27,095 bases of DNA, taken from the IMG/VR virus record IMGVR_UViG_2537562194_000033. The stretch is one strand, 5' to 3'. The translations under genes were made by a program, and so were the position numbers. Below the pieces are notes generated by a model. That model searched no databases. It saw nothing but the letters and a program-made list of their open reading frames with translations, and was not told the origin of the DNA. Shown piece after piece: positions 11,060 through 25,994 of the stretch (position 1 is the first letter of the stretch; each line of letters begins with the position of its first letter). This DNA is from a virus (lineage: Duplodnaviria > Heunggongvirae > Uroviricota > Caudoviricetes).

Positions 11060-12811
11060 ATGATTCAGGACGCTTTTGTGCGCCAGCGTGCGCGGCAACT
11101 TTACTGGCAGGGTTATCCGCCCGCAGAAATATCACGTCTGATGGGAATAAACCCGAACACGATTTATGCGTGGAAAAAACGCGACCAGTGGGATGAAACG
11201 CCACCCGTGCAGCGTGTCACGCAGTCCATCGATGCGCGCCTCATCCAGCTTACTGAAAAACAGAATAAAACAGGCGGTGATTTTAAGGAAATAGACCTGC
11301 TGACCCGGCAGCTTAAAAAGCTGCATGATGGCCATCCGGATGTGATGGCCGCAGGAAAGAAAGGCCGGGCGAAAAAACTCAAAAATCATTTCACGCCGGA
11401 ACAGATTGCCGCACTGCGGGAAAAAATCATCAACAGGCTGGAGTGGCATCAGCGGGGCTGGTTTGACTCCCTGACCCTTTGCAGGGAAGCCGGGATACGT
11501 AACAGGATGATCCTGAAATCCCGACAGATTGGGGCGACCTGGTATTTTGCACAGGAAGCACTGCTGATGGCGCTGCGTGACGATGTGGCGCAACCTTACC
11601 AGCGTAACCAGATTTTTTTGTCTGCGTCGCGTCGTCAGGCGTTCCAGTTTAAAAGCATTATTCAGAAGGCTGCGGCTGAAGTTGATGTGGAGCTGAAAGG
11701 GGGCGATAAAATCATCCTCTCCAATGGCGCAGAGCTGCATTTTCTCGGCACTTCTGCTGCGTCGGCACAGTCCTATACGGGCAATTTTTATTTTGATGAA
11801 TTTTTCTGGGTCAGTCGCTTTGCTGAACTGCGCAAGGTGGCTGGCGCTATGGCAACCCTCAGCGGACTGCGGCGCACCTACTTCTCCACGCCATCCACCG
11901 AAACGCACGAGGCATACGCCTACTGGAACGGCGACCGCTGGAACGAGAAAAAGGCCTTGCATAAACGCCAGCGTTTTTCTGTGGACTGGAAAACGCTGCA
12001 TAACGGGCTTATCTGCCCTGACCGGACGTGGCGGCAAATTGTCACGCTGGAAGATGTGGTTAATCACGGCTGGAAACACACCGATATCGACGAAATTCGT
12101 GATGAAAACACCGAAGACGAGTTCCTCAATCTCTATATGTGTGAGTTTGTCCGCGAAGGGGAATCGGCATTTAACCTGAATATCCTGATTGGCTGCGGTG
12201 TTGACGGATACGACGACTGGAAAGACTGGAAACCTTTTGCTCCCCGCCCGATGGGGAATCGTCCGGTATGGATTGGGTATGACGCAAACGGCAGCAGTGG
12301 CAACGGCGACAGCGGCGCTGTGTCTGTGGTGGTTCCTCCGGCTGTTCCTGGTGGCCGTTTTCGAACGGTGGAGACGCGACGCGTTCAGGGGCTGGAGTTT
12401 GAAGAACAGGCCAGAGTCATTGAAGAGTTCACGTGTCGCTACAACGTGGAACACATCGGCATTGATGTGACGGGCGGGAACGGGGAGGCTGTTTATCAGA
12501 TAGTGAAACGGTTTTTCCCTGCTGCTATTCCGTACACCTTCACGCTGTCATCAAAACGGTCGCTGGTACTGAAAATGCTGCAAATAATGCGTGCCGGGCG
12601 GTGGGAATACGATCGCGCCGAACGCGAGCTGGTCGCGGCCTTTAACGCCGTGCGTAAGGTGAAAACACCGGGCGGCTTTATCACTTACGAAACGGACCGC
12701 GCGAGGGGGATCAGCCACGGCGACCTTGCGTGGGCAACCATGCTTGCTGTCATTAACGAACCAATTGGCGGCGAAGGAGAAAACGAGCGTTTCACGGTTA
12801 TGGAGTTCTGA
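11060..12811 (+). CDS. P: terminase large (ATPase) subunit gpP
   Basis: 583 aa, ATG at 11060 after GGGGGAG. Contains a KSRQIGAT Walker-A-like motif. Size and position fit P2 gpP. Confidence 0.9.
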   Translation: MIQDAFVRQRARQLYWQGYPPAEISRLMGINPNTIYAWKKRDQWDETPPVQRVTQSIDARLIQLTEKQNKTGGDFKEIDLLTRQLKKLHDGHPDVMAAGKKGRAKKLKNHFTPEQIAALREKIINRLEWHQRGWFDSLTLCREAGIRNRMILKSRQIGATWYFAQEALLMALRDDVAQPYQRNQIFLSASRRQAFQFKSIIQKAAAEVDVELKGGDKIILSNGAELHFLGTSAASAQSYTGNFYFDEFFWVSRFAELRKVAGAMATLSGLRRTYFSTPSTETHEAYAYWNGDRWNEKKALHKRQRFSVDWKTLHNGLICPDRTWRQIVTLEDVVNHGWKHTDIDEIRDENTEDEFLNLYMCEFVREGESAFNLNILIGCGVDGYDDWKDWKPFAPRPMGNRPVWIGYDANGSSGNGDSGAVSVVVPPAVPGGRFRTVETRRVQGLEFEEQARVIEEFTCRYNVEHIGIDVTGGNGEAVYQIVKRFFPAAIPYTFTLSSKRSLVLKMLQIMRAGRWEYDRAERELVAAFNAVRKVKTPGGFITYETDRARGISHGDLAWATMLAVINEPIGGEGENERFTVMEF

Positions 12812-13857
12812 TGAGCAGAAAAAATAAAAAAGTGCGCATGAGTTCACGCATTGATCTCGCTGATGCGCTCAGGAAAGAATCGTCGCTCAGTGCATTCACT
12901 TTTGATGGTCCTTATCGCCTGACCGGGCATGATTTGCTGGACAATATGTACTGTGCTGATAACGGGCGGTGGTATGAAACCCCGGTGGACTGGTACGGTC
13001 TGGCAAGAGCCGCCCGGCAAACGTCCTGGCATCAGTCTGCGCTTTACTTTAAGCGCAATGTATTGCTCGGCTGCTATATTCCGCACCCGCTGCTTTCCCG
13101 GCAGGATTTCTCGGCGCTGGCGCTGGACTGGTTTGTGTTCGGTAACGCATTCCTTGAGCTTCGAAGCAATATGCTCGGCGAACCGCTTAAATTACGGCAC
13201 GCCCTGGCGAAATACATGCGACGCGGAAGCGATCTTGAATCATGGTGGTATGTGCAGGATGGCAAGGATGCGTTTCAGTTTCGCCCTGGCAAAGTGTGCC
13301 ACCTGATGAATCCGGATATTAACCAGGAAATCTACGGCATGCCGGAATATCTTGGCGCATTACTCTCGGCCAGCCTTTCTCATTCGGCGGACATGTTCAG
13401 AAAACTGTATTACGACAACGGATCCCACGCCGGGTGCATCATCTACATCGGTGCAGCGCAGGTAAACCGCGAAAGCATGGACTCCCTGAAAGAAACGTTA
13501 CAGGGTGCGCGTGGTGGTGGTGCATTTAAAAACGTGCTCATTCATGCGCCCAACGGGGGCAAAGAAGGTGTGCAAATTTTGCCGTTCCAGCAGATCACCG
13601 CAAAGGATGAGTTCATGAATGTTAAGGCGGCATCCCGTGATGATGTACTGGCTGCGCACCGCGTTCCGCCGCAACTGATGGGGGCGATGCCGGGTGAAAA
13701 AAGTGCGTTTGGTGATGTGGAGAAGGCCGCGCGGGTTTACGCAATTAACGAGCTGATGCCCGTCATGGAGGCCATGAAGCACATCAATGACTGGCTTGGC
13801 GAAGAGGTGATCCGCTTTAACCCTTACGCACTGTTAGATACCCAGCCCACATCCTGA
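12811..13857 (+). CDS. Q: portal protein gpQ
   Basis: 348 aa, ATG overlapping the P stop (TGATG). Last gene before the cos region, as in P2. Confidence 0.9.
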   Translation: MSRKNKKVRMSSRIDLADALRKESSLSAFTFDGPYRLTGHDLLDNMYCADNGRWYETPVDWYGLARAARQTSWHQSALYFKRNVLLGCYIPHPLLSRQDFSALALDWFVFGNAFLELRSNMLGEPLKLRHALAKYMRRGSDLESWWYVQDGKDAFQFRPGKVCHLMNPDINQEIYGMPEYLGALLSASLSHSADMFRKLYYDNGSHAGCIIYIGAAQVNRESMDSLKETLQGARGGGAFKNVLIHAPNGGKEGVQILPFQQITAKDEFMNVKAASRDDVLAAHRVPPQLMGAMPGEKSAFGDVEKAARVYAINELMPVMEAMKHINDWLGEEVIRFNPYALLDTQPTS

Positions 13858-14311
13858 CGCGCTTCGCTTGTCTGCTGCTTCGCCGGGGCATAAAAAATTT
13901 ATGCCCCGACTCTCCAGCTCCTGTATCAGTCAGATAATTTCACGACGCTTTCCTGCTTATTGCCATCATCGACGGTCAGACTCTTACGCAATCCCACTGC
14001 GCTGACTGCATGTTCTCGCCGCCTCAGTGCGATTTTGACGGCCTTATCTTCCACCCCATCAAATCAAAAGCCCTCACGTATTTTTCACGCTCAGCGTGAG
14101 AAATACGGCCATTCTGTCGTGTCGCTGCGACATCGTTAAGGGAACGCTATTTACCCCCTGAAACGCGGGCTGTTCCCCCGTCACCTGCGCACAGGAAAAA
14201 CGCGTTTTTTGTGCACGCACGGATCCTTGACGGATCCAGCCGCCATGCGGGCCGGAAGGGCAAAAAGTCGTTCAAAAAAATTGTGCAAATTTGTGCACTT
14301 TTGTGCAAAGA
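13858..14311. other. cos / packaging region (position inferred from gene order only)
   Basis: Non-coding stretch between the portal gene and the cargo operon. In P2 the cohesive ends lie just beyond Q. Contains a perfect palindrome GGGGCATAAA-AAA-TTTATGCCCC at 13884-13906 and a GGATCC-N5-GGATCC motif near 14222-14238. The exact cos cut site was not identified. Confidence 0.3.
14209..14307. repeat. TTGTGCA(A/C) direct repeats, three at exact 10-bp spacing plus one upstream
   Basis: TTGTGCA at 14209, 14281, 14291 and 14301, each preceded by a T or A tract. Confidence 0.6.
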
Positions 14312-14336
14312 AATGCCCCTCAAATTGAGGGGCATT
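14312..14336 (-). terminator. putative intrinsic terminator of the cargo operon
   Basis: AATGCCCCTCAA-A-TTGAGGGGCATT inverted repeat starting 14 nt after the protease stop, followed on the minus strand by TCTTTG. Confidence 0.5.
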
Positions 14337-14349
14337 ATGTCTTGAAGGA

Positions 14350-16575
14350 TTACGAACGAATAGGAATTGATGTTTGCGGTTGAATTGGCACGAGCACCTG
14401 ATTATAAGTACGTAAAATTTCGTTATACAGGTCTTGGTGCTTTGATGCCTTAATGGTAATTATAAGAGCATACTTGATTTTTTCTGCCTTATGGCTGGCT
14501 ATGCTTGCACCGGCCTCACGAGCGTTATAATGAATGTCAAATACAGGATTTTTTAGAGTTGAACCTAGCATGTTCTTCGAATTATGTAAGACGGTCTCCC
14601 ATTTGCCCATGTCAGAACGTCGCTCACTTTCAGTTGAATATTTGGCCAGTTCAAAGAATCCCTTGGTTTCAGCATTTTGTTTTCCGTCTTTGATTTTTGA
14701 ATCATTTGGCCGGAATGTCACTTCCAAACCAGCTTTTGTATAGGAAGCTGGGTCTTGTGGATCAGTGGTTGTTGCATAACAGAAAGTTGCCGCTAAGTTT
14801 ATTCTACCTTTCAAGCCACCTTCAGGTATTGGAAGAGAAGCGCGTAAGTATTTTCCTGGTTTCAATTCACCTTGGTAGACGATACGGGCAACACCATCAG
14901 GGCTGACTATAATGTCGTTCAAGTCTTCAGGCAGTTTTCCCCAGCCAACTTCTGTACAAGGATGATCAAGCTGTTTTGACGCATGAATTAACAAAGCTTT
15001 GATTGCTAGTAGGCTCAAATCGTTCCCTAAAATTGCCCGAACACCAACAGCTGCTCGTAAGGCGTAAGGAGAGGCAAAGCTTGTTCCTAGCTGGGGTATG
15101 ATTACAGGCTTCTTACCTTTACCTAAAACATGAAAGTACTCGTCTGTGTCACCACCAAACGCAACTAAATCCGGTTTCATCACGCCAGGACTTCTGCCTG
15201 GCCCAATGGCGCTATATGGTGCTCGTTTCCATTCCGTATCATTAACTGTATCACAAGCACCAACAGCAAGAGCATTAACGCAATCGGCTGGTACTTGAAT
15301 TCTTGCATTACCAGACTTGCGATCCATTTCTCCATTGTTGCCAACAGCAACAGTCATTAATGTTTCACCATCACTTAACAAATCATCAATAACGGAAGTC
15401 CATGCATGAACTTCCGTATCTTCAATTGGTAGGTCTGGACCTAAACTTAGATTGATAAACTGATACTGGCGAGACAACAATACCTCTTCAATAAAGCCCA
15501 AAGTTCGATATAGTTCCAGCGGATCTTCTTGGCAGGTCTTGTTGTCCAAAACTCTTAAGTTATCAATATAAGAGTATGGTCTTTTCGCTTCCGATTTATT
15601 ACTTATTGGTCCAAATAAAAAGGCTGAAGACACAGCTAAACCATGCTCTAAACCGTCTGGATCATCCTCTGCATGATCGTCCAAAACTCTATAGGATTTT
15701 AACCATGGCGATATAGCGTGCTCTGATGGTAAACCACCATCAAGAATCGCAACTTTTATTTCTGAAGATACGGGGCCCTCAGCAGGTAATTTACACTGAG
15801 CTAAAGGACCGTAGTTCCTTTGTATTGGTCTAATCCCACGCAATCTTGGAACCGGTCTTATTACTCGTACAAATGTAAATTTCGCAAGCTTACTAATAGT
15901 AATTCTATCGGCCTGGATTGGCACGAACCATAATGTACCAGCGGTAAAAGCTAATGAAGTATGTACTTTGATGTTCAAATTTGATGCAAACTGAACAAAT
16001 TGTTGCTGAACCAAGTCTTGTTCATTATCTGACAGTAAATGAACACCAACCTCAAAATACGAAGAATCCTGCTCACCAATGGTAATAATACGCTCTTCGG
16101 GTAAATAGGCATCGAACCGTTCTATGCGTGCAAAATCAATCGCTTCGTCAGAAAACTCTTTGAGTCCTGACACCCAATGAGGTAACTCTTTGAAGGATTC
16201 TCTTTTACCAGCAACAAACATTTGTGTCGTAGTTACTTCTGACACAGTAACTTTTCGCTTCCAGCTTTGAGGCGTAATTTTTACCGTCCTGCTGCCAATA
16301 GACGTTAACCCGGTAGACTTAAGCATTTTTGCAGGAAAAAAAGAGCGTGCAATATAGCTTGGATTCAACGTCAACTTAGCCACAGCATAATCATAAGGAC
16401 ATGCCTGACTGGGTAAATCATCAAAATTTTCTATAGTAGATGCAATTTGCGGCAATAAACGTTGTTTCGATTCGTAAAGAGAATAAACCTCAGCTTTTCC
16501 GGGCACTCTTTTAGGACCAGGAATATCGCTGGTTAATAATTCGCCGCGTCCAATCAGAAAATTAGTTTTCGCCAT
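14350..16575 (-). CDS. S8 subtilisin-like serine protease with uncharacterised N- and C-terminal domains (IetS-like?)
   Basis: 741 aa, ATG at 16575 with AGGAG 6 nt upstream. Catalytic motifs in canonical order: D279 (VAILDGG), H311 (LEHGLAV), N413 (VAVGNNGE), S499 (LGTSFASP). Flanked by ~265 aa N-terminal and ~200 aa C-terminal regions with no motif I recognise. AT-rich relative to the phage core. Confidence 0.85.
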   Translation of the reverse strand: MAKTNFLIGRGELLTSDIPGPKRVPGKAEVYSLYESKQRLLPQIASTIENFDDLPSQACPYDYAVAKLTLNPSYIARSFFPAKMLKSTGLTSIGSRTVKITPQSWKRKVTVSEVTTTQMFVAGKRESFKELPHWVSGLKEFSDEAIDFARIERFDAYLPEERIITIGEQDSSYFEVGVHLLSDNEQDLVQQQFVQFASNLNIKVHTSLAFTAGTLWFVPIQADRITISKLAKFTFVRVIRPVPRLRGIRPIQRNYGPLAQCKLPAEGPVSSEIKVAILDGGLPSEHAISPWLKSYRVLDDHAEDDPDGLEHGLAVSSAFLFGPISNKSEAKRPYSYIDNLRVLDNKTCQEDPLELYRTLGFIEEVLLSRQYQFINLSLGPDLPIEDTEVHAWTSVIDDLLSDGETLMTVAVGNNGEMDRKSGNARIQVPADCVNALAVGACDTVNDTEWKRAPYSAIGPGRSPGVMKPDLVAFGGDTDEYFHVLGKGKKPVIIPQLGTSFASPYALRAAVGVRAILGNDLSLLAIKALLIHASKQLDHPCTEVGWGKLPEDLNDIIVSPDGVARIVYQGELKPGKYLRASLPIPEGGLKGRINLAATFCYATTTDPQDPASYTKAGLEVTFRPNDSKIKDGKQNAETKGFFELAKYSTESERRSDMGKWETVLHNSKNMLGSTLKNPVFDIHYNAREAGASIASHKAEKIKYALIITIKASKHQDLYNEILRTYNQVLVPIQPQTSIPIRS

Positions 16576-16598
16576 ACATACTCCTTATCTATGCTGTA

Positions 16599-17720
16599 TT
16601 ACATTTTTTGACTGTATTTTCTAATTGTATCCCTACTGACTCCGGTTAAGTCTGATATGGCATGCTGGGATAATTTAGAATTTCTTTTTAGAGTAACTGC
16701 AATTTCTTTACGTTCATTCCTGTCTAATTCTGATAAACCATCTTTAATGAACGACCCAATCAACTCTTCATCTGAGGAAATACCTAAAGCGACCGAACGT
16801 CGGAATTTGTTGATAGAACGCTCAATATTACTAAAAGATTCATTTTTGAACATAATAGCCAGTAGATCTATCCAACGTGCAAAAATCGCGTAGTCGGGAC
16901 CCGAAAAGCGTTTAATTGCTTCTTTAATACTTTCGCTATCTGGCTTCTCAAAATTGAGCACTAAATCAAAACGTCTCCATAGTGCTGGATCAATCAACTC
17001 AGCGAAGTTAGTTGCAGCAAGTAGCAAACTAGAAGACGGCCATTCGTCAACCTCCTGGAGTATCACGGTAACAAGTCTTTTTAATTCTCCAACATCAGAA
17101 TCATCACTTCTCTTTTTGGCGATTGAATCAATTTCATCTAACAGAAGAACGCACGGCCCTTTCTTCGCAAAATCTAGAGCTGCCCGAAGGTTATTTCCGC
17201 TTTTGCCCAGATAGCTGCTCATTACTGCCGTTAAATCAAGAACGTAAAAAGGAACCCCTAATTTCTGAGCTAACCAGCTTGCCGTAAGTGTTTTACCGAC
17301 ACCCGGAGGGCCAACAAAAATGGCAGAGCGTGTTGGTTGTAAGCCGAGAGTCTTGAGGCGATCGATGTGCTTCCGCTCAAGAATAATTTGATCCAGTGAG
17401 TCTTCTATCTGACTGGACAGTAGAGGTTTGCTCACAATCTTTTCATTTGGTGCTTTAAGCAAGGTAAGCCTTGACTCCTCGTCCACAGGCATGGTTTGAG
17501 GCAGCGCTTGTTTTGGTGCGGTAACCTTACGCAGGCTTTGTGCAGGCTTTTGCGGTTTATTTCGTAGATAAAGATCAAGCTGCTCGGATAGAGCAGGCAT
17601 AGTTTCCCGATATTTACGCACCAAGCGAGCGACATATAACCGAACGTCATCATACTGTTCAGTTATTACCAGTCTAACTAGTTGGGCTAAATCTGACTGA
17701 ATACCACCTAAGTCGCCCAT
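16599..17720 (-). CDS. AAA+ ATPase with C-terminal HTH-like tail (IetA-like?)
   Basis: 373 aa, ATG at 17720 with AAGAGG upstream. Walker A GPPGVGKT (K143), Walker B VLLLDEID, sensor-1 AATN, RR at 249-250. The last ~25 aa (SKLSQHAISDLTGVSRDTIRKY) look like a helix-turn-helix. Stop is 23 nt before the protease start, so the two are an operon. Confidence 0.85.
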   Translation of the reverse strand: MGDLGGIQSDLAQLVRLVITEQYDDVRLYVARLVRKYRETMPALSEQLDLYLRNKPQKPAQSLRKVTAPKQALPQTMPVDEESRLTLLKAPNEKIVSKPLLSSQIEDSLDQIILERKHIDRLKTLGLQPTRSAIFVGPPGVGKTLTASWLAQKLGVPFYVLDLTAVMSSYLGKSGNNLRAALDFAKKGPCVLLLDEIDSIAKKRSDDSDVGELKRLVTVILQEVDEWPSSSLLLAATNFAELIDPALWRRFDLVLNFEKPDSESIKEAIKRFSGPDYAIFARWIDLLAIMFKNESFSNIERSINKFRRSVALGISSDEELIGSFIKDGLSELDRNERKEIAVTLKRNSKLSQHAISDLTGVSRDTIRKYSQKM

Positions 17721-17900
17721 CTTAACTGTAACCTCTTGATTTTAAGTGAATTGAAAAAGCATTTAACTGGACTATTTATAGTATTGCACTTTTTTATCAA
17801 ACAGGGAAGAGGAATACTATATGAAATTACAGTGTGCCCCATGGAACGTCCTTACCATGTCTAAACTCTACCTTCATACAATTGATGATTTCTTTCTTGG
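17721..17900 (-). promoter_or_regulatory. AT-rich intergenic region, probable promoter of the cargo operon
   Basis: 180-bp AT-rich spacer between the A stop and the ATPase start. It contains TTGATA and TATAAA hexamers on the minus strand, but their spacing is not canonical, so the promoter is not pinned down. Confidence 0.3.
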
Positions 17901-20666
17901 TTATTTTTTCTTCTCGCTATTGCCTTTGTCCTGCAACAGACCCGCCTTGTGACGTGCGCGTTCAGTGGTTTCATTGATTCTCTGTGCGTGCTCTGCGTCA
18001 CGGATGGCGCGCAGCATGTCAGAAAGCACGGTAACGGGGGGGTTCATGGTGTTCTGGTCCTGCTGAAGTGTGGATACCAGGCGTGCGGCGGCTTCGGGGT
18101 CTGATGCCCCCAGCTGTTCCAGATAGCTGGCGACCGGGTTATGGCGGATCTCCGTGCTGCTTACGCCGTGATTACGGCTCAGGCGCTGCCAGAGCTGCGT
18201 GATTCGGCTGTCCGGGCGGGTATCCGGTTTGCGTACAATTTCAAATCCCTGCGGTGCAATGATGCTGCCGTCAACGTACAGGCTGCCGCCCCGTAACAGG
18301 TGCTGCATCTGCTGTTCACCGATATGCAGGCCGAGAGATTCAGCAGATTCCCGCCATTCTTTAGCGAGTAATTCGTGGTTATCAGGCAAAGGCCGCTGCT
18401 GTTTGCGGCTCTGTGTCCAGCTCTGCATTTCATCACTGCTGTTTTTTGCCTGTTTGTCACGCAGCGAACGCATCAGCGCCCGGCGTTCGTGCCGTTTCAG
18501 TGAGCGCATCCATTCGTTCACTTCAACGCCGTCAGGGAGCTGCGGCCACGGTGCTGGCCGTTCTTCCGGCTGTTCTGCCCCGTTGTTGTCCGTTTCCTGT
18601 ACACGGGGACAGTTATTGCCACGAGTCCAAGGGGCGGCAGGGCCGCCCTGAAGGTCAAAACCATTTTCGCGGGCGCTGTCTTCCGTTTCCGGTTTACGTC
18701 TTACCAGTTTCCAGTTATCCGGATGCGTGCACACACGGGAGGATTCCCCGATGAGTGGTGACCAGATCCCGTAAATCTGTACGCTCTGTTCGCCGTAATC
18801 ATTCAGCTCATCTGCGAGGTCGTAGGCGGTGCGAATCAGGTAGTCTTTGCGTGGAACAAGTACGCCGCCCTGTTTTTCAATGTAGGAGGCAAAACACCCG
18901 GCATCAGCGGCAGCGAGTACCGCATCCATTGCATCATCCTTCAGCCGTTGCGGGCCTTCCGGGTTGCGTGCCATCTGGCTGGCAAGGCGGCGGAGTTCAC
19001 GCCATACCTGACGGGAGGGGATGCCAAAGAACTGGAACTGGCGGACCCGATGAAGACGCGCCCAGCCAATGGCGCGCTCCACGCTCTCGGCCATTGATTT
19101 TCCGGTTTCGTGGTCAACGCGTGGCTTGCCCGTTTTCGGGTCGATGCCATCTACGGCGCGGCTGTCCAGGTTTTTTCCGATGTAGGTCGCGATATAGCTG
19201 GTTGGTGTGCCTTTTGAGCCGTCGACATACTCCGCCTTAAAGCGCGGAGTAATATCATCGCCCAGTTCGTGACGATCTTCCTGAATGGCAATATCGCGGG
19301 TGATGGCCACGATGCTGTCGATTTCTTCCGGATGAGCAAAGACCATCATATGCCAGTGCACGGTGCCGTCATGGTGAGGCTCCACCGTGCGGATGCCATA
19401 CCAGCGCAGGCCGTCGCGGTTCAGTTTTTTGCGGACCGCCGCAAAAAACGTGTTAACCAGGTAATCGCTGGAGTCGCGCATGGTGGCCCCGTTCCATTTG
19501 GGGTTCGGATGACCGTTCTCCGTTGTTGCGTGGTATTTTGACGGGCAGGTGACAGTCAGAAACACCGCTTTGTCACCACGGGCTTCGGCCAGAAGTTCCA
19601 GCCCCTTCATGGTGGCCATCATTTCTGCCTTACGGTGAACCGGGTTACTTACTCCCGCGTAATACACTGTCTCGAGATCAATCGTGAACCCGTCTTCATT
19701 TTCCAGCATGAAACTTTTCAGGAAATCGCGTGTTTTCTCGCGCTGTGCGCGAAACTCGCTTAACGCGTCCTGGCTCAGATAGGGCGATGTTTTTCTGGAA
19801 ACCAGACAGGCGGCGCGGAGTTGTTCTTCTCTCCACTCGCAACGTAACAGCCACAGTTTGCGTTTCCACCATTCCGCACAGGTCAGGCGAAGGATTGCGC
19901 CCGGCAGCAGCTCCGTGTCCGGTTCGTTCCTCCGGTCTTTGTCTGTTGTCAGTGCGTCATAATGTGGAGGCATGGCGTGCAGGTGTAACGCCATGCGGGC
20001 CAGCATCTGATACGCCTTCAGCGTTACATCCATGGTCAGTTCGCCATCGGTCGCGCCAAAGCCATCGCAGAGTTTTTCGAAGGTGCTGCTGAACATCGCC
20101 GCCGTCATGGTGGCCAGTGTCTGTATCTGGTGTTTGTTGAGCTGCGGCAGGTAAAGCAAATCGTCCAGGCGTTCGCGTCCGGCAAGGGAGCGATAACCCT
20201 GTGTCAGCCAGCGGTGATCGGTGCGCTCCAGACGTTCGAATATTTTGCGCAGGTTTCCGCGCGCGTAGCGTTCAGCCTGCCAGCTCTTTTTGCCTTTCTG
20301 ACGATCGGCTTCCTGTTTTTTGCGCAGGAAGGAGAGGTGGCGAATAAGCGGATCGCGCAGATAGGACGGCAGCAGGCGCAGCGAGGCCATGGCTTCATCC
20401 ACCGCGCCGCGTGCCTGTTTTCTGGCATCTCCTGCCAGTGTGATGGTTTTGTCCTGTTTTTCCTGTGCGTCCAGGCTTTTATTAATCAGGTTGCCCAGCG
20501 GCGTTGCGGAGAACGCCGCATCAGCCATTTCCTGGCGGCGCTCGTTCTCTACCCGGTAGGCATCCAGCCAGGAGGAAAGCGCGGATTCAGGAGCGGGGAT
20601 CCCCGTTCCTTCACGCCCCACTGCGTGGCGCGGTTGTTGCCAGTCCCTGATGTACTCTGCCGTCAT
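17901..20666 (-). CDS. A: replication initiation endonuclease gpA (rolling-circle initiator)
   Basis: 921 aa. Contains HHDGTVHWHMMVFA (HUH-like metal site) and YIATYIGK (catalytic Tyr region), as expected for the P2 A family. Confidence 0.9.
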   Translation of the reverse strand: MTAEYIRDWQQPRHAVGREGTGIPAPESALSSWLDAYRVENERRQEMADAAFSATPLGNLINKSLDAQEKQDKTITLAGDARKQARGAVDEAMASLRLLPSYLRDPLIRHLSFLRKKQEADRQKGKKSWQAERYARGNLRKIFERLERTDHRWLTQGYRSLAGRERLDDLLYLPQLNKHQIQTLATMTAAMFSSTFEKLCDGFGATDGELTMDVTLKAYQMLARMALHLHAMPPHYDALTTDKDRRNEPDTELLPGAILRLTCAEWWKRKLWLLRCEWREEQLRAACLVSRKTSPYLSQDALSEFRAQREKTRDFLKSFMLENEDGFTIDLETVYYAGVSNPVHRKAEMMATMKGLELLAEARGDKAVFLTVTCPSKYHATTENGHPNPKWNGATMRDSSDYLVNTFFAAVRKKLNRDGLRWYGIRTVEPHHDGTVHWHMMVFAHPEEIDSIVAITRDIAIQEDRHELGDDITPRFKAEYVDGSKGTPTSYIATYIGKNLDSRAVDGIDPKTGKPRVDHETGKSMAESVERAIGWARLHRVRQFQFFGIPSRQVWRELRRLASQMARNPEGPQRLKDDAMDAVLAAADAGCFASYIEKQGGVLVPRKDYLIRTAYDLADELNDYGEQSVQIYGIWSPLIGESSRVCTHPDNWKLVRRKPETEDSARENGFDLQGGPAAPWTRGNNCPRVQETDNNGAEQPEERPAPWPQLPDGVEVNEWMRSLKRHERRALMRSLRDKQAKNSSDEMQSWTQSRKQQRPLPDNHELLAKEWRESAESLGLHIGEQQMQHLLRGGSLYVDGSIIAPQGFEIVRKPDTRPDSRITQLWQRLSRNHGVSSTEIRHNPVASYLEQLGASDPEAAARLVSTLQQDQNTMNPPVTVLSDMLRAIRDAEHAQRINETTERARHKAGLLQDKGNSEKKK

Positions 20667-23959: not shown

Positions 23960-24149
23960 CTAAAGTCCCAGCCACAACAACCATGCGTCGCGGCGTTCTT
24001 TCGGTTGCTCAAAAAACGCTTTGCGCATGCCTTCGTTAAATGCTGGCAGATATACCCAGTTTTCTGATGCACGCGTCTTTACTGAACCTGGTTTCACAAA
24101 GTCAATTGTCGGTAGCTTTGCTGCGTCAATCATGGTTCTGACTGTGGAT
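23960..24149 (-). pseudogene. cox: cox (excisionase/early repressor) 3' fragment, separated from its 5' part by an IS insertion
   Basis: Joining 25560-25460 to 24149-23960 and removing one copy of the GAT duplication gives an intact 95-aa ORF: MSESELGGFIQVAPYPLEAVPYQLFAKMIGRKESTVRTMIDAAKLPTIDFVKPGSVKTRASENWVYLPAFNEGMRKAFFEQPKERRDAWLLWLGL. It resembles P2 Cox as recalled. Confidence 0.8.
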
Positions 24150-24203
24150 TGAACCGCCCCGGAAATCCTGGAGACTAAACTCCCTGAGAAAGAGGTAAAC
24201 AGG

Positions 24204-24530
24204 ATGACTAAAAATACTCGTTTTTCCCCCGAAGTCCGTCAGCGGGCGATTCGTATGGTTCTGGAAAGTCAGGATGAATATGACTCACAGTGGGCGGCAA
24301 TTTGTTCCATTGCCCCAAAGATTGGCTGTACGCCGGAGACTCTGCGTGTCTGGGTTCGCCAGCATGAGCGGGATACCGGGGGCGGTGATGGTGGGCTCAC
24401 CAGCGCTGAACGTCAGCGTCTGAAAGAGCTGGAACGTGAAAATCGTGAACTGCGCCGCAGTAACGATATCCTTCGCCAGGCTTCCGCTTATTTTGCGAAG
24501 GCGGAGTTCGACCGCCTCTGGAAAAAATGA
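24204..24530 (+). CDS. IS3-family transposase OrfA (HTH and leucine-zipper part)
   Basis: 108 aa. The -1 frame relationship to orfB at the A6 run (24522-24527) fits the programmed frameshift typical of IS3-family elements. Confidence 0.9.
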
Positions 24531-25417
24531 TGCCACTGCTGGATAAGCTGCGTGAGCAGTACGGGGTCGGACCGGTATGCAGCGAACTGCATATTGCCCC
24601 GTCAACGTATTACCATTGTCAGCAACAGCGACATCATCCGGATAAACGCAGTGCCCGTGCGCAGCACGACGACTGGCTGAAGAGAGAGATACAGCGCGTA
24701 TACGATGAAAATCATCAGGTGTACGGTGTGCGTAAAGTCTGGCGTCAGTTGTTACGGGAAGGAATCAGGGTGGCCAGATGTACAGTGGCACGTCTCATGG
24801 CGGTTATGGGACTTGCCGGTGTTCTCCGGGGTAAAAAGGTCCGTACGACCATCAGCCGGAAAGCCGTTGCCGCAGGCGACCGCGTAAACCGTCAGTTCGT
24901 GGCAGAACGACCTGACCAGCTGTGGGTGGCTGATTTTACTTACGTCAGCACATGGCAGGGCTTCGTCTATGTGGCGTTTATCATTGATGTGTTTGCCGGA
25001 TACATCGTGGGGTGGCGGGTCTCATCGTCTATGGAAACGACATTCGTGCTGGATGCGCTGGAGCAGGCGTTGTGGGCCCGTCGTCCGTCTGGCACCATCC
25101 ATCACAGCGATAAAGGCTCTCAGTATGTGTCACTGGCCTATACGGAGCGACTAAAAGAAGCCGGATTACTGGCATCAACAGGGAGTACAGGCGACTCGTA
25201 TGACAACGCGATGGCTGAGAGCATCAATGGTCTTTACAAAGCGGAGGTAATACACCGTAAGAGCTGGAAAAACCGTGCAGAAGTGGAACTGGCCACACTA
25301 ACGTGGGTGGACTGGTATAACAATCGACGATTGCTGGGAAGGCTGGGCCATACTCCTCCGGCAGAAGCAGAAAAAGCTTATTATGCTTCCATCGGAAACG
25401 ATGATCTGGCAGCCTGA
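24527..25417 (+). CDS. IS3-family transposase OrfB (DDE catalytic domain)
   Basis: 296 aa with an rve-type integrase core (WVADFTYV...HSDKGSQY...[14 protein letters not shown]). Confidence 0.9.
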
Positions 25418-25673: not shown

Positions 25674-25994
25674 ATGGCATCTTTGTCAAGCATGGGTGAA
25701 AAATTTCGCCTGATTCGTGAAGCAGAAGGTATGACCCGCCAGGAGTTTGCGGATTGTGTTGGGCTGCCTTATGGGACGGTAACTAACTATGAGGTGAGGG
25801 GGAAGCAAGTAACAGAGGGTGCCTTACTTAAGGTTACGAAACACCCTAAATTTAAGAAGTATGCTTATTGGTTATCAACAGATGAAACGATGCCGGAGGT
25901 CGGGCAAATTTCTCCGGCTCTCTCTCTTGATGGTTCCTGCAATTCGGAGGGAGATCGCGTTTCAACCGAAACAATCCAAAAATTATCCCGCTGA
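25674..25994 (+). CDS. C: immunity repressor C
   Basis: Start set to ATG at 25674 (MASLSSMGEKFRLIREAEGMTRQEFADCVGLPYGT...), with GGAGGA 10 nt upstream. The HTH region and PKFKKYAYWL / GQISPAL blocks resemble P2 C as recalled. The track ORF begins at an upstream GTG. Confidence 0.8.
   Translation: MASLSSMGEKFRLIREAEGMTRQEFADCVGLPYGTVTNYEVRGKQVTEGALLKVTKHPKFKKYAYWLSTDETMPEVGQISPALSLDGSCNSEGDRVSTETIQKLSR

Follow-up and report, generated by a model that had tools for sequence, protein, structure and literature searches.

The window studied in this work, a stretch of 27,095 nucleotides (nt) from a virus of the Caudoviricetes (IMG/VR virus record IMGVR_UViG_2537562194_000033), is 100% identical to the P2-like prophage integrated beside pdxB in E. 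coli 95NR1, and it raises the question of what two adjacent genes for an AAA+ ATPase and a subtilisin-like (S8) protease are doing in such a prophage. To judge from profile matches, the pair, called ietA and ietS below, belongs almost certainly to the IetAS (Gao_Iet) family. The best explanation overall, which we regard as very likely, is an IetAS module carried as cargo in the variable slot of a P2-like prophage, serving both as a toxin-antitoxin (TA) pair and as an abortive-infection system. That the particular allele of the window is an active defence appears probable from our analysis. The system and its location in P2 prophages are already known from published work; what is new here is the architecture that we infer for IetS together with a C-terminal helix-turn-helix (HTH) in IetA.

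Both genes are read from the minus strand. In the open reading frame (ORF) listing ietA (16599-17720) and ietS (14350-16575) start with ATG and encode 373 and 741 amino acids (aa), respectively; RefSeq names the products 'AAA family ATPase' (WP_000502620.1) and 'S8 family peptidase' (WP_001140704.1). The initial annotation had described two co-oriented genes 23 nt apart, each having a strong ribosome-binding site (RBS). The first part of this description holds, the spacer (16576-16598, minus strand) being 23 nt long, while the second applies to ietS only, where the textbook site TAAGGAG (16581-16587) lies within the spacer 5 nt before the ATG; the RBS of ietA is AAGAGG (17732-17737), 11 nt before its start codon. 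A spacer of the same size, 23 nt, separates the genes of a Nitrosomonas pair (locus L005, 7978-8000), the proteins of which are ~61-65% identical, and the ietA and ietS homologues of Burkholderia and Stenotrophomonas overlap by 4 nt.

The motifs of a classical AAA ATPase and of a subtilase were all found at the residues where the initial annotation had placed them. In IetA the Walker A sequence GPPGVGKT was read directly at aa 137-144 (K143; 17289-17312, minus strand), followed by Walker B (LLLDEID, aa 192-198, D195/E196), AATN at aa 235-238 with the sensor-1 residue N238, and WRRF at aa 248-251 with the Arg fingers R249 and R250; the pore-loop-1 position is occupied by SSYLG (aa 168-172). In IetS the catalytic residues follow each other in the order D279 (ILDGG), H311 (EHGL), N413 (GNNG) and S499 (GTSFASP). 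The first three pair with D32, H64 and N155 of subtilisin E in a HMMER alignment, and we take GTSFASP to be the counterpart of the GTSMASP motif around S221 of subtilisin. All four residues are invariant in an alignment of 35 homologous sequences, as are Walker A, Walker B, sensor 1 and both Arg fingers among 32 homologues of IetA. The Pfam search suggested earlier assigned IetA to AAA (PF00004, 2.6e-30) and IetS to Peptidase_S8 (PF00082, 2.5e-19), and more than 4,900 homologues of IetA and more than 2,000 of IetS were found. Judged from the sequence, the gene pair with its motifs is far beyond chance.

The family assignment is carried by the defence-system profiles. IetA matched the PADLOC profile PDLC02196 at 1e-77 (residues 9-372 on profile positions 5-370 of 374) and three further PADLOC IetA profiles at 2e-72 to 7e-41; IetS matched PDLC02197 at 1e-51 (residues 36-726 on profile positions 38-733 of 749) and six further IetS profiles. 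Wherever the context was examined, the S8 gene comes directly after the AAA gene: in E. coli (four further lineages, loci L002, L003, L014 and L013), Serratia, Nitrosomonas, Burkholderia and Stenotrophomonas. Both proteins also match, over their full length, phage protein families of unknown function (IetA phrog_3757, 4e-133; IetS phrog_3964, 8e-255). The initial annotation had named the IetAS class and, as a fallback, an undescribed AAA+/subtilase pairing unrelated to it. In favour of the latter, the names given by the NCBI Prokaryotic Genome Annotation Pipeline (PGAP) are generic, and the only specific NCBIfam matches, IteA_antiphage (NF042959) and IteS_antiphage (NF042956), stay below their equivalog cut-offs (IteA 223 versus 510 bits, IteS 135 versus 900 bits). 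These low scores, together with the identity of only 24-28% between the window IetS and the genes named iteS by PGAP, count against the family assignment. The generic RefSeq/PGAP names are explained by the scores below these cut-offs. The full-length PADLOC matches, however, refute an unrelated pairing, and the architecture and protein lengths are those of the annotated ietAS of the same hotspot, so this alternative is hardly conceivable, and of the two designations in the initial annotation it is the IetAS class that stands. By their sequences, the window proteins are best read as IetAS family members and not as equivalogs of the NCBI reference. With Gao_Iet (Gao et al. 2020) and its B. cereus m1293 homologue (Stokar-Avihail et al.) the window pair shares the operon order, AAA+ then S8, the intact active sites and the mobile carrier; it differs from them in its divergent sequences.

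The genes are flanked on the left by a P2 gpA-type replication endonuclease (921 aa, 17901-20666, minus strand; RefSeq annotation, with Pfam Phage_GPA in the Serratia counterpart) and on the right by the portal protein gpQ (12811-13857, plus strand; RefSeq annotation). The length of the endonuclease varies among P2-like phages, being 790 aa in Serratia and 940 aa in E2348/69. When the window was compared with the E2348/69 prophage, the backbone of which is 96% identical, homology ended at 14307 and restarted at 17930, which delimits a variable cargo slot (14308-17929) with only ietAS inside. CFSAN051542 has another backbone (~71% identical) and the same cassette (84%), the homology spanning 14164-17843. 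One backbone carries different ietAS alleles, and one cassette occurs in different backbones. At 39-45%, the G+C content of the slot is lower than that of the phage backbone (53-59%). The 19-mer GGTGACGGGGGAACAGCCC (14167-14185, minus-strand reading), which lies between the slot and the portal gene, agrees at 13 of 19 positions with what we take to be the P2 cos sequence, and this stretch is probably the cos site of the phage.

According to Rousset et al. (2022) the cos-proximal gpA-gpQ region, which holds old and tin in P2, is a hotspot of diversity and defence with 1,650 arrangements in 18,150 loci. In their table mmc6 the combination of Peptidase_S8 and AAA, counted 400 times, is the seventh commonest cargo (arrangement 7) and bears the annotation 'ietAS (Gao et al., 2020)', and the pair of AAA/HTH_50 and Peptidase_S8 is given as WP_000502619 and WP_001545554; the ATPase accession is adjacent to that of the window IetA, WP_000502620. 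The initial annotation had placed the pair in the P2 A-to-cos slot of old and tin and called this slot a defence hotspot; the annotated flanks and the table bear this out, and the comparison across P2-like prophages that it had proposed revealed cargo varying between otherwise similar phages (E2348/69, CFSAN051542). At least two further ietAS lineages share the slot, namely the E2348/69 type (40% identical to the window in both IetA and IetS) and the EC102/strain-127 type (46% in IetA, 39% in IetS). The E2348/69 allele, the representative of arrangement 7, has the same slot, gene order and AAA-plus-HTH and S8 architecture as the window and differs from it in this low identity and in additional cargo. 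In that slot (locus L003, 9876-11151) ietAS adjoins ParM/StbA and a plasmid-stability gene, which suggests that the E2348/69 cassette was captured from a plasmid maintenance region.

The cassette was found in 43 of 5,426 complete E. coli genomes, 42 times at ≥99.5% identity and once at 85%, with O111 Shiga-toxin-producing and porcine enterotoxigenic lineages among the carriers. These counts bear on the possibility that the locus is inactive, a remnant that a degraded prophage carries along passively. In favour of this, the cox/C switch region of the prophage contains an insertion sequence (IS): IS1203, of the IS3 family (24204-25417, plus strand), sits between cox (23960-24166, minus strand) and the C-like HTH repressor gene (25674-25994, plus strand), 37 nt upstream of cox and inside the divergent Pe/Pc switch region, where it has probably uncoupled the early lytic operon and so locked the prophage in. 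Some strains, moreover, have copies of the cassette that are IS-disrupted or deleted. Nevertheless, 42 genomes from a variety of hosts carry both ORFs intact at ≥99.5% identity, no catalytic residue has been lost, and the family is strongly conserved (65% identity from E. coli to Nitrosomonas), so that a passive remnant is highly improbable.

What the pair may do follows from its studied homologues. IetAS was first described as a plasmid-stabilising TA system of pTiC58, a stability and incompatibility determinant in which IetS is the toxin and IetA the antitoxin; while the class had been recognised in the initial annotation, this origin and the toxin/antitoxin roles had been missed. The sgiAT pair of SGI1 was studied in E. 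coli, where SgiT cuts transformation 100- to 1000-fold and is toxic in <30 minutes, and where SgiA abolishes this toxicity from a separate plasmid and promoter. Since SgiA acts from a separate plasmid and promoter, neutralisation takes place at the protein level. Both systems combine a subtilase toxin with an AAA-ATPase antitoxin neutralising it at the protein level, as we propose for the window, and they differ from it in having been studied for plasmid or island maintenance and not for defence. A role in defence was described for the B. cereus ietAS (Stokar-Avihail et al.), which acts by abortive infection and becomes toxic once SPbeta yosG is expressed. In the ietHAS study (Liu et al. 2026) defence depended on the protease activity, and cloning of an ietA mutant proved impossible. 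The mechanism of IetAS, regarded as undescribed in the initial annotation, was still called unknown in a paper of April 2026, and our combined literature search found no recent mechanistic work on it.

The same literature supports the view that the pair is an addiction or stability module, in which a TA pair penalises the loss of the element and phage defence is minor or absent. IetAS was first known as a stability and incompatibility determinant of pTiC58, sgiAT stabilises SGI1, the E2348/69 allele adjoins ParM/StbA and a plasmid-stability gene in the very same slot, and relatives of IetS are common on plasmids. The ECOR52 system of Wu et al. defended weakly when alone. On the other hand, the slot is on record as a hotspot of defence cargo, protection against phages and a response to a phage trigger have been shown for homologues, post-segregational killing was not seen when sgiAT was under its native promoter, and prophages, once integrated, are rarely lost. 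An addiction role is plausible and not mutually exclusive with defence; as a replacement for defence we consider it rather unlikely. That ietAS and Zorya II exclude each other was ascribed by Wu et al. to the location of one of the two on an integrated element, e.g. a prophage. The ECOR52 ietAS was also considered as the window allele itself and was rejected, its primers being absent from the window and from loci L001-L004, with no ECOR52 genome among the matches.

The toxicity data also bear on a feeder machine, in which IetA would unfold phage proteins for destruction by IetS, a direct and non-killing defence. IetA does belong to the classical AAA clade of unfoldases, and the ATPase-protease pairs of FtsH, Lon and the proteasome, which appeared as side matches in NCBIfam, work in this way. 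However, homologous IetS is toxic alone and is countered by IetA, the opposite of a feeder relation, and the defence of a homologue is abortive. In addition, subtilases are open monomeric proteases and not chambered ones, and the aromatic residue of the pore loop is not conserved. A feeder relation is therefore very unlikely, and the TA pair acting by abortive infection remains the preferred reading.

No signal peptide was found in IetS, which points to a cytoplasmic subtilase. The full-length model of the protein was used for coarse architecture only, and the N-terminal domain was re-modelled alone. The first 25 residues are modelled at a predicted local distance difference test (pLDDT) score of ~30, yet they contain the invariant NFLIGRGELL. 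Within them the N-terminal peptide (aa 4-15, TNFLIGRGELLT; 16531-16566, minus strand), conserved and predicted to be unstructured, is a candidate docking or engagement tag, with N5-E12 and L14 invariant in the 35-sequence alignment. The motif [FY]hh[GA]x[GA][ERQDN]xh was present at IetS residues 4-15 in 54 of the 63 full-length representatives of the 50% clusters and nowhere else in their 44,558 residues. Since this segment lies outside the query used for the search (aa 28-245), its conservation is independent evidence.

The peptide is followed by a family-specific N-domain (aa 28-245; 15841-16494, minus strand), predicted to consist of two beta-alpha-beta-beta-alpha-beta units of ferredoxin-like type, which lie at ~aa 60-160 and ~aa 170-245 in the model of residues 1-275 (pLDDT 77.5, predicted template modelling score (pTM) 0.74). 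The second modelled unit was tentatively assigned as subtilase-propeptide (I9)-like, on account of its topology and because it immediately precedes the catalytic domain. An exhaustive search with residues 28-245 returned 477 clusters, the match always covering ~28-248 in proteins of ~725-766 aa or in shorter apparent fragments. Since only IetS-type proteins were matched, the N-domain is specific to IetS, and the idea of a sensor module reused by other effectors was rejected. Conservation within the clade is 48-55% in the N-domain, 74% in the S8 domain and 71% in the C-domain, the N-domain evolving more quickly than the catalytic part.

The S8 catalytic domain, defined by Pfam and alignment, extends over aa 271-550 (14926-15765, minus strand) and holds D279, H311, N413 and S499. 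The beta-rich C-terminal domain (~aa 557-730; 14386-14907, minus strand) has a pLDDT of 50-84 in the full-length model and is probably, at low confidence, jelly-roll or P-domain-like; jelly-roll capsid proteins matched ~180 columns of the model in Foldseek, which we attribute to this domain. The best Foldseek hit of the full-length model was pro-Tk-SP (ProN-Tk-SP; 1e-8, 590 aligned columns), and PCSK9 entries took ranks 3, 5 and 6 (3e-5 to 9e-4; 615-621 columns). When the N- and C-domains of IetS and the N-domain of IetA were scanned in isolation, Pfam gave nothing usable at E values up to 10, and sequence search found no solved structure of IetA or IetS. From the models we infer that IetS is built like a cytoplasmic pro-subtilase: behind the N-terminal peptide come two ferredoxin-like units, at least one of them similar to the inhibitory I9 propeptide, then a conserved linker rich in Arg and Pro (RPVPRLRGIRP), the S8 domain and the beta-rich C-domain. 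Read in this way, the order of a propeptide-like ferredoxin fold, S8 and a beta-rich C-domain would be the one seen in pro-subtilases that keep their propeptide (Tk-SP, PCSK9, subtilisin E/BPN'), the likeness being a fold resemblance and not family membership. In contrast to these enzymes, IetS is cytoplasmic, is paired with an ATPase and has an additional ferredoxin-like unit as well as the conserved peptide at its N terminus.

IetA consists of an N-terminal helical region, the AAA module (~aa 110-270), a lid and the C-terminal HTH, and its nearest solved relatives are classical AAA proteins of the Cdc48/p97 type (1e-47). The HTH (aa 349-369, KLSQHAISDLTGVSRDTIRKY; 16614-16676, minus strand) was recognised from a run of HTH Pfam families below threshold. 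It is kept in the 40%-identical E2348/69 allele and is missing from the helicase-associated E24377A variant.

Possible regulatory elements surround the genes on the minus strand. The region upstream of ietA (17721-17850) is conserved with the CFSAN051542 cassette despite the different backbone, ~125 nt travelling with the cassette. In this region the sequence contains an AT-rich block with overlapping -10-like hexamers (17775-17789), overlapped by an 8-bp inverted repeat, ATAGTATT (17813-17820) and AATACTAT (17778-17785); this repeat may be an operator for auto-repression by the HTH of IetA. On the other side, 16 nt past the ietS stop, an intrinsic-terminator-like hairpin (GCCCCTCA-ATT-TGAGGGGC, then ATTTCTTT; 14306-14333) was found by direct reading; a simple scan did not list it. 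To judge from its sequence, the cassette seems to be equipped with a terminator and an upstream regulatory region of its own. The span of 14350-17720 reported at first is thus right for the genes, and the cargo unit, with terminator and conserved upstream region, is slightly wider (14308-17929). The search for a third, hidden gene in the slot yielded a sole extra ORF (14147-14335, 62 aa), which was rejected as it overlaps the terminator and backbone conserved in other prophages. The Rfam scan of the slot gave nothing real.

Put together, these features suggest the following mechanism. IetA, probably a hexameric AAA+ remodeller, would spend ATP on keeping a zymogen-like IetS latent, most likely by engaging the N-terminal region of IetS, and through its C-terminal HTH it may in addition repress its own operon, acting at the inverted repeat that overlaps the -10-like block. 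A protein of the infecting phage would block, occupy or titrate IetA and thereby free IetS; cleavage of essential proteins by IetS would bring the cell to a halt before the phage has matured. This specific gating mechanism, with IetA restraining IetS, is put forward tentatively and we regard it as doubtful. The version in which IetS is an intracellular subtilase zymogen and IetA its ATP-driven gatekeeper, the N-terminal peptide and the N-domain being the handle for the AAA+ ring, is more speculative and distinctly unlikely.

Several observations speak against the defence reading or against the mechanism. The pore-loop-1 residue Y170 is Leu in most of the 32 IetA homologues, and because the aromatic residue is not kept there the case for processive threading is weaker. 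The full-length model of IetS is poor (pLDDT 54.8, and <50 over most of the S8 domain, residues 291-486) and is based on a shallow alignment. Ferredoxin-like folds are widespread, and propeptides scored hardly differently from ribosomal protein S6 and ACT domains. In the scan, the promoter and operator assignments did no better than chance, the promoter signal being weak and equalled by shuffled sequence, and no promoter is claimed. Among the studied homologues, sgiAT gave no post-segregational killing from its own promoter, and the ECOR52 ietAS gave limited protection alone, with synergy with Zorya II (Wu et al.). Finally, ietA of EC102 is split into ORFs of 246 and 102 aa beside an intact ietS (locus L004, 6673-7755). 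In strain 127 (locus L014, 3673-4755), the ietS of which is identical to that of EC102, ietA is intact. Either the split is a sequencing error, or EC102 tolerates the loss of the supposed antitoxin, which would be odd for an essential antitoxin.

The other natural disruptions point in the opposite direction. In E. coli E06 and on one plasmid each of Enterobacter and Paenarthrobacter, ietS is interrupted by IS elements, and an IS1203-associated deletion removed ietA together with the 5' half of ietS in the O111:H8 strain 7-27 20A (locus L015). The natural knock-outs mostly hit ietS or both genes, which fits what toxin-antitoxin logic predicts.

Outside the slot of E. coli prophages the family is found in various mobile settings. 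A Serratia pair, 76% identical, occupies the same gpA-portal slot, while the Nitrosomonas, Burkholderia and Stenotrophomonas pairs (65% identical) are in contexts of IS, transposon or island type. IetS-like genes also occur on sequenced phages of Enterobacter, Pseudomonas (Pf) and Paenibacillus and on plasmids, and the window IetS is 54% identical to the homologue on an Agrobacterium plasmid. Homologues consistently found in housekeeping contexts had been named at the outset as an argument against a defence role; no such context was seen among the loci examined. A fourth E. coli lineage, that of E24377A (locus L013, 4030-14793), consists of an SNF2 gene, an AAA gene (326 aa) and an S8 gene (795 aa), and like ietHAS (Liu et al. 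2026) it has an ATPase and a protease homologous to the window pair (36% and 29% identity to the window IetA and IetS, respectively). The variant differs in needing the SNF2 helicase as third gene, in a shorter IetA lacking the C-terminal HTH and in a longer IetS, and the locus lies beside genes like those of type III restriction-modification (RM) in an integrase/IS island and not in the P2 slot. This three-gene locus, called ietAS by PADLOC, is followed directly by genes for a DNA methyltransferase and a DEAD-box helicase, in agreement with published findings that ietAS co-localises with type III RM.

As a discovery the locus matters little, since standard defence-finding profiles call it ietAS. 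Its value is that of a compact native test case, a 3.6-kb E. coli cassette, for the unsolved mechanism of IetAS, with natural comparison alleles of ~40% identity in the same slot of near-identical phages. The N-terminal peptide and propeptide-like N-domain of IetS and the HTH of IetA offer concrete handles on how an ATPase might restrain a toxic protease. The allele is frequent in O111 Shiga-toxin-producing and porcine enterotoxigenic strains and is consequently relevant to the choice of phages for therapy. If the gatekeeper version of the mechanism is true, it would be the first AAA+-gated pro-subtilase switch in bacterial immunity and would supply the missing mechanism of IetAS.

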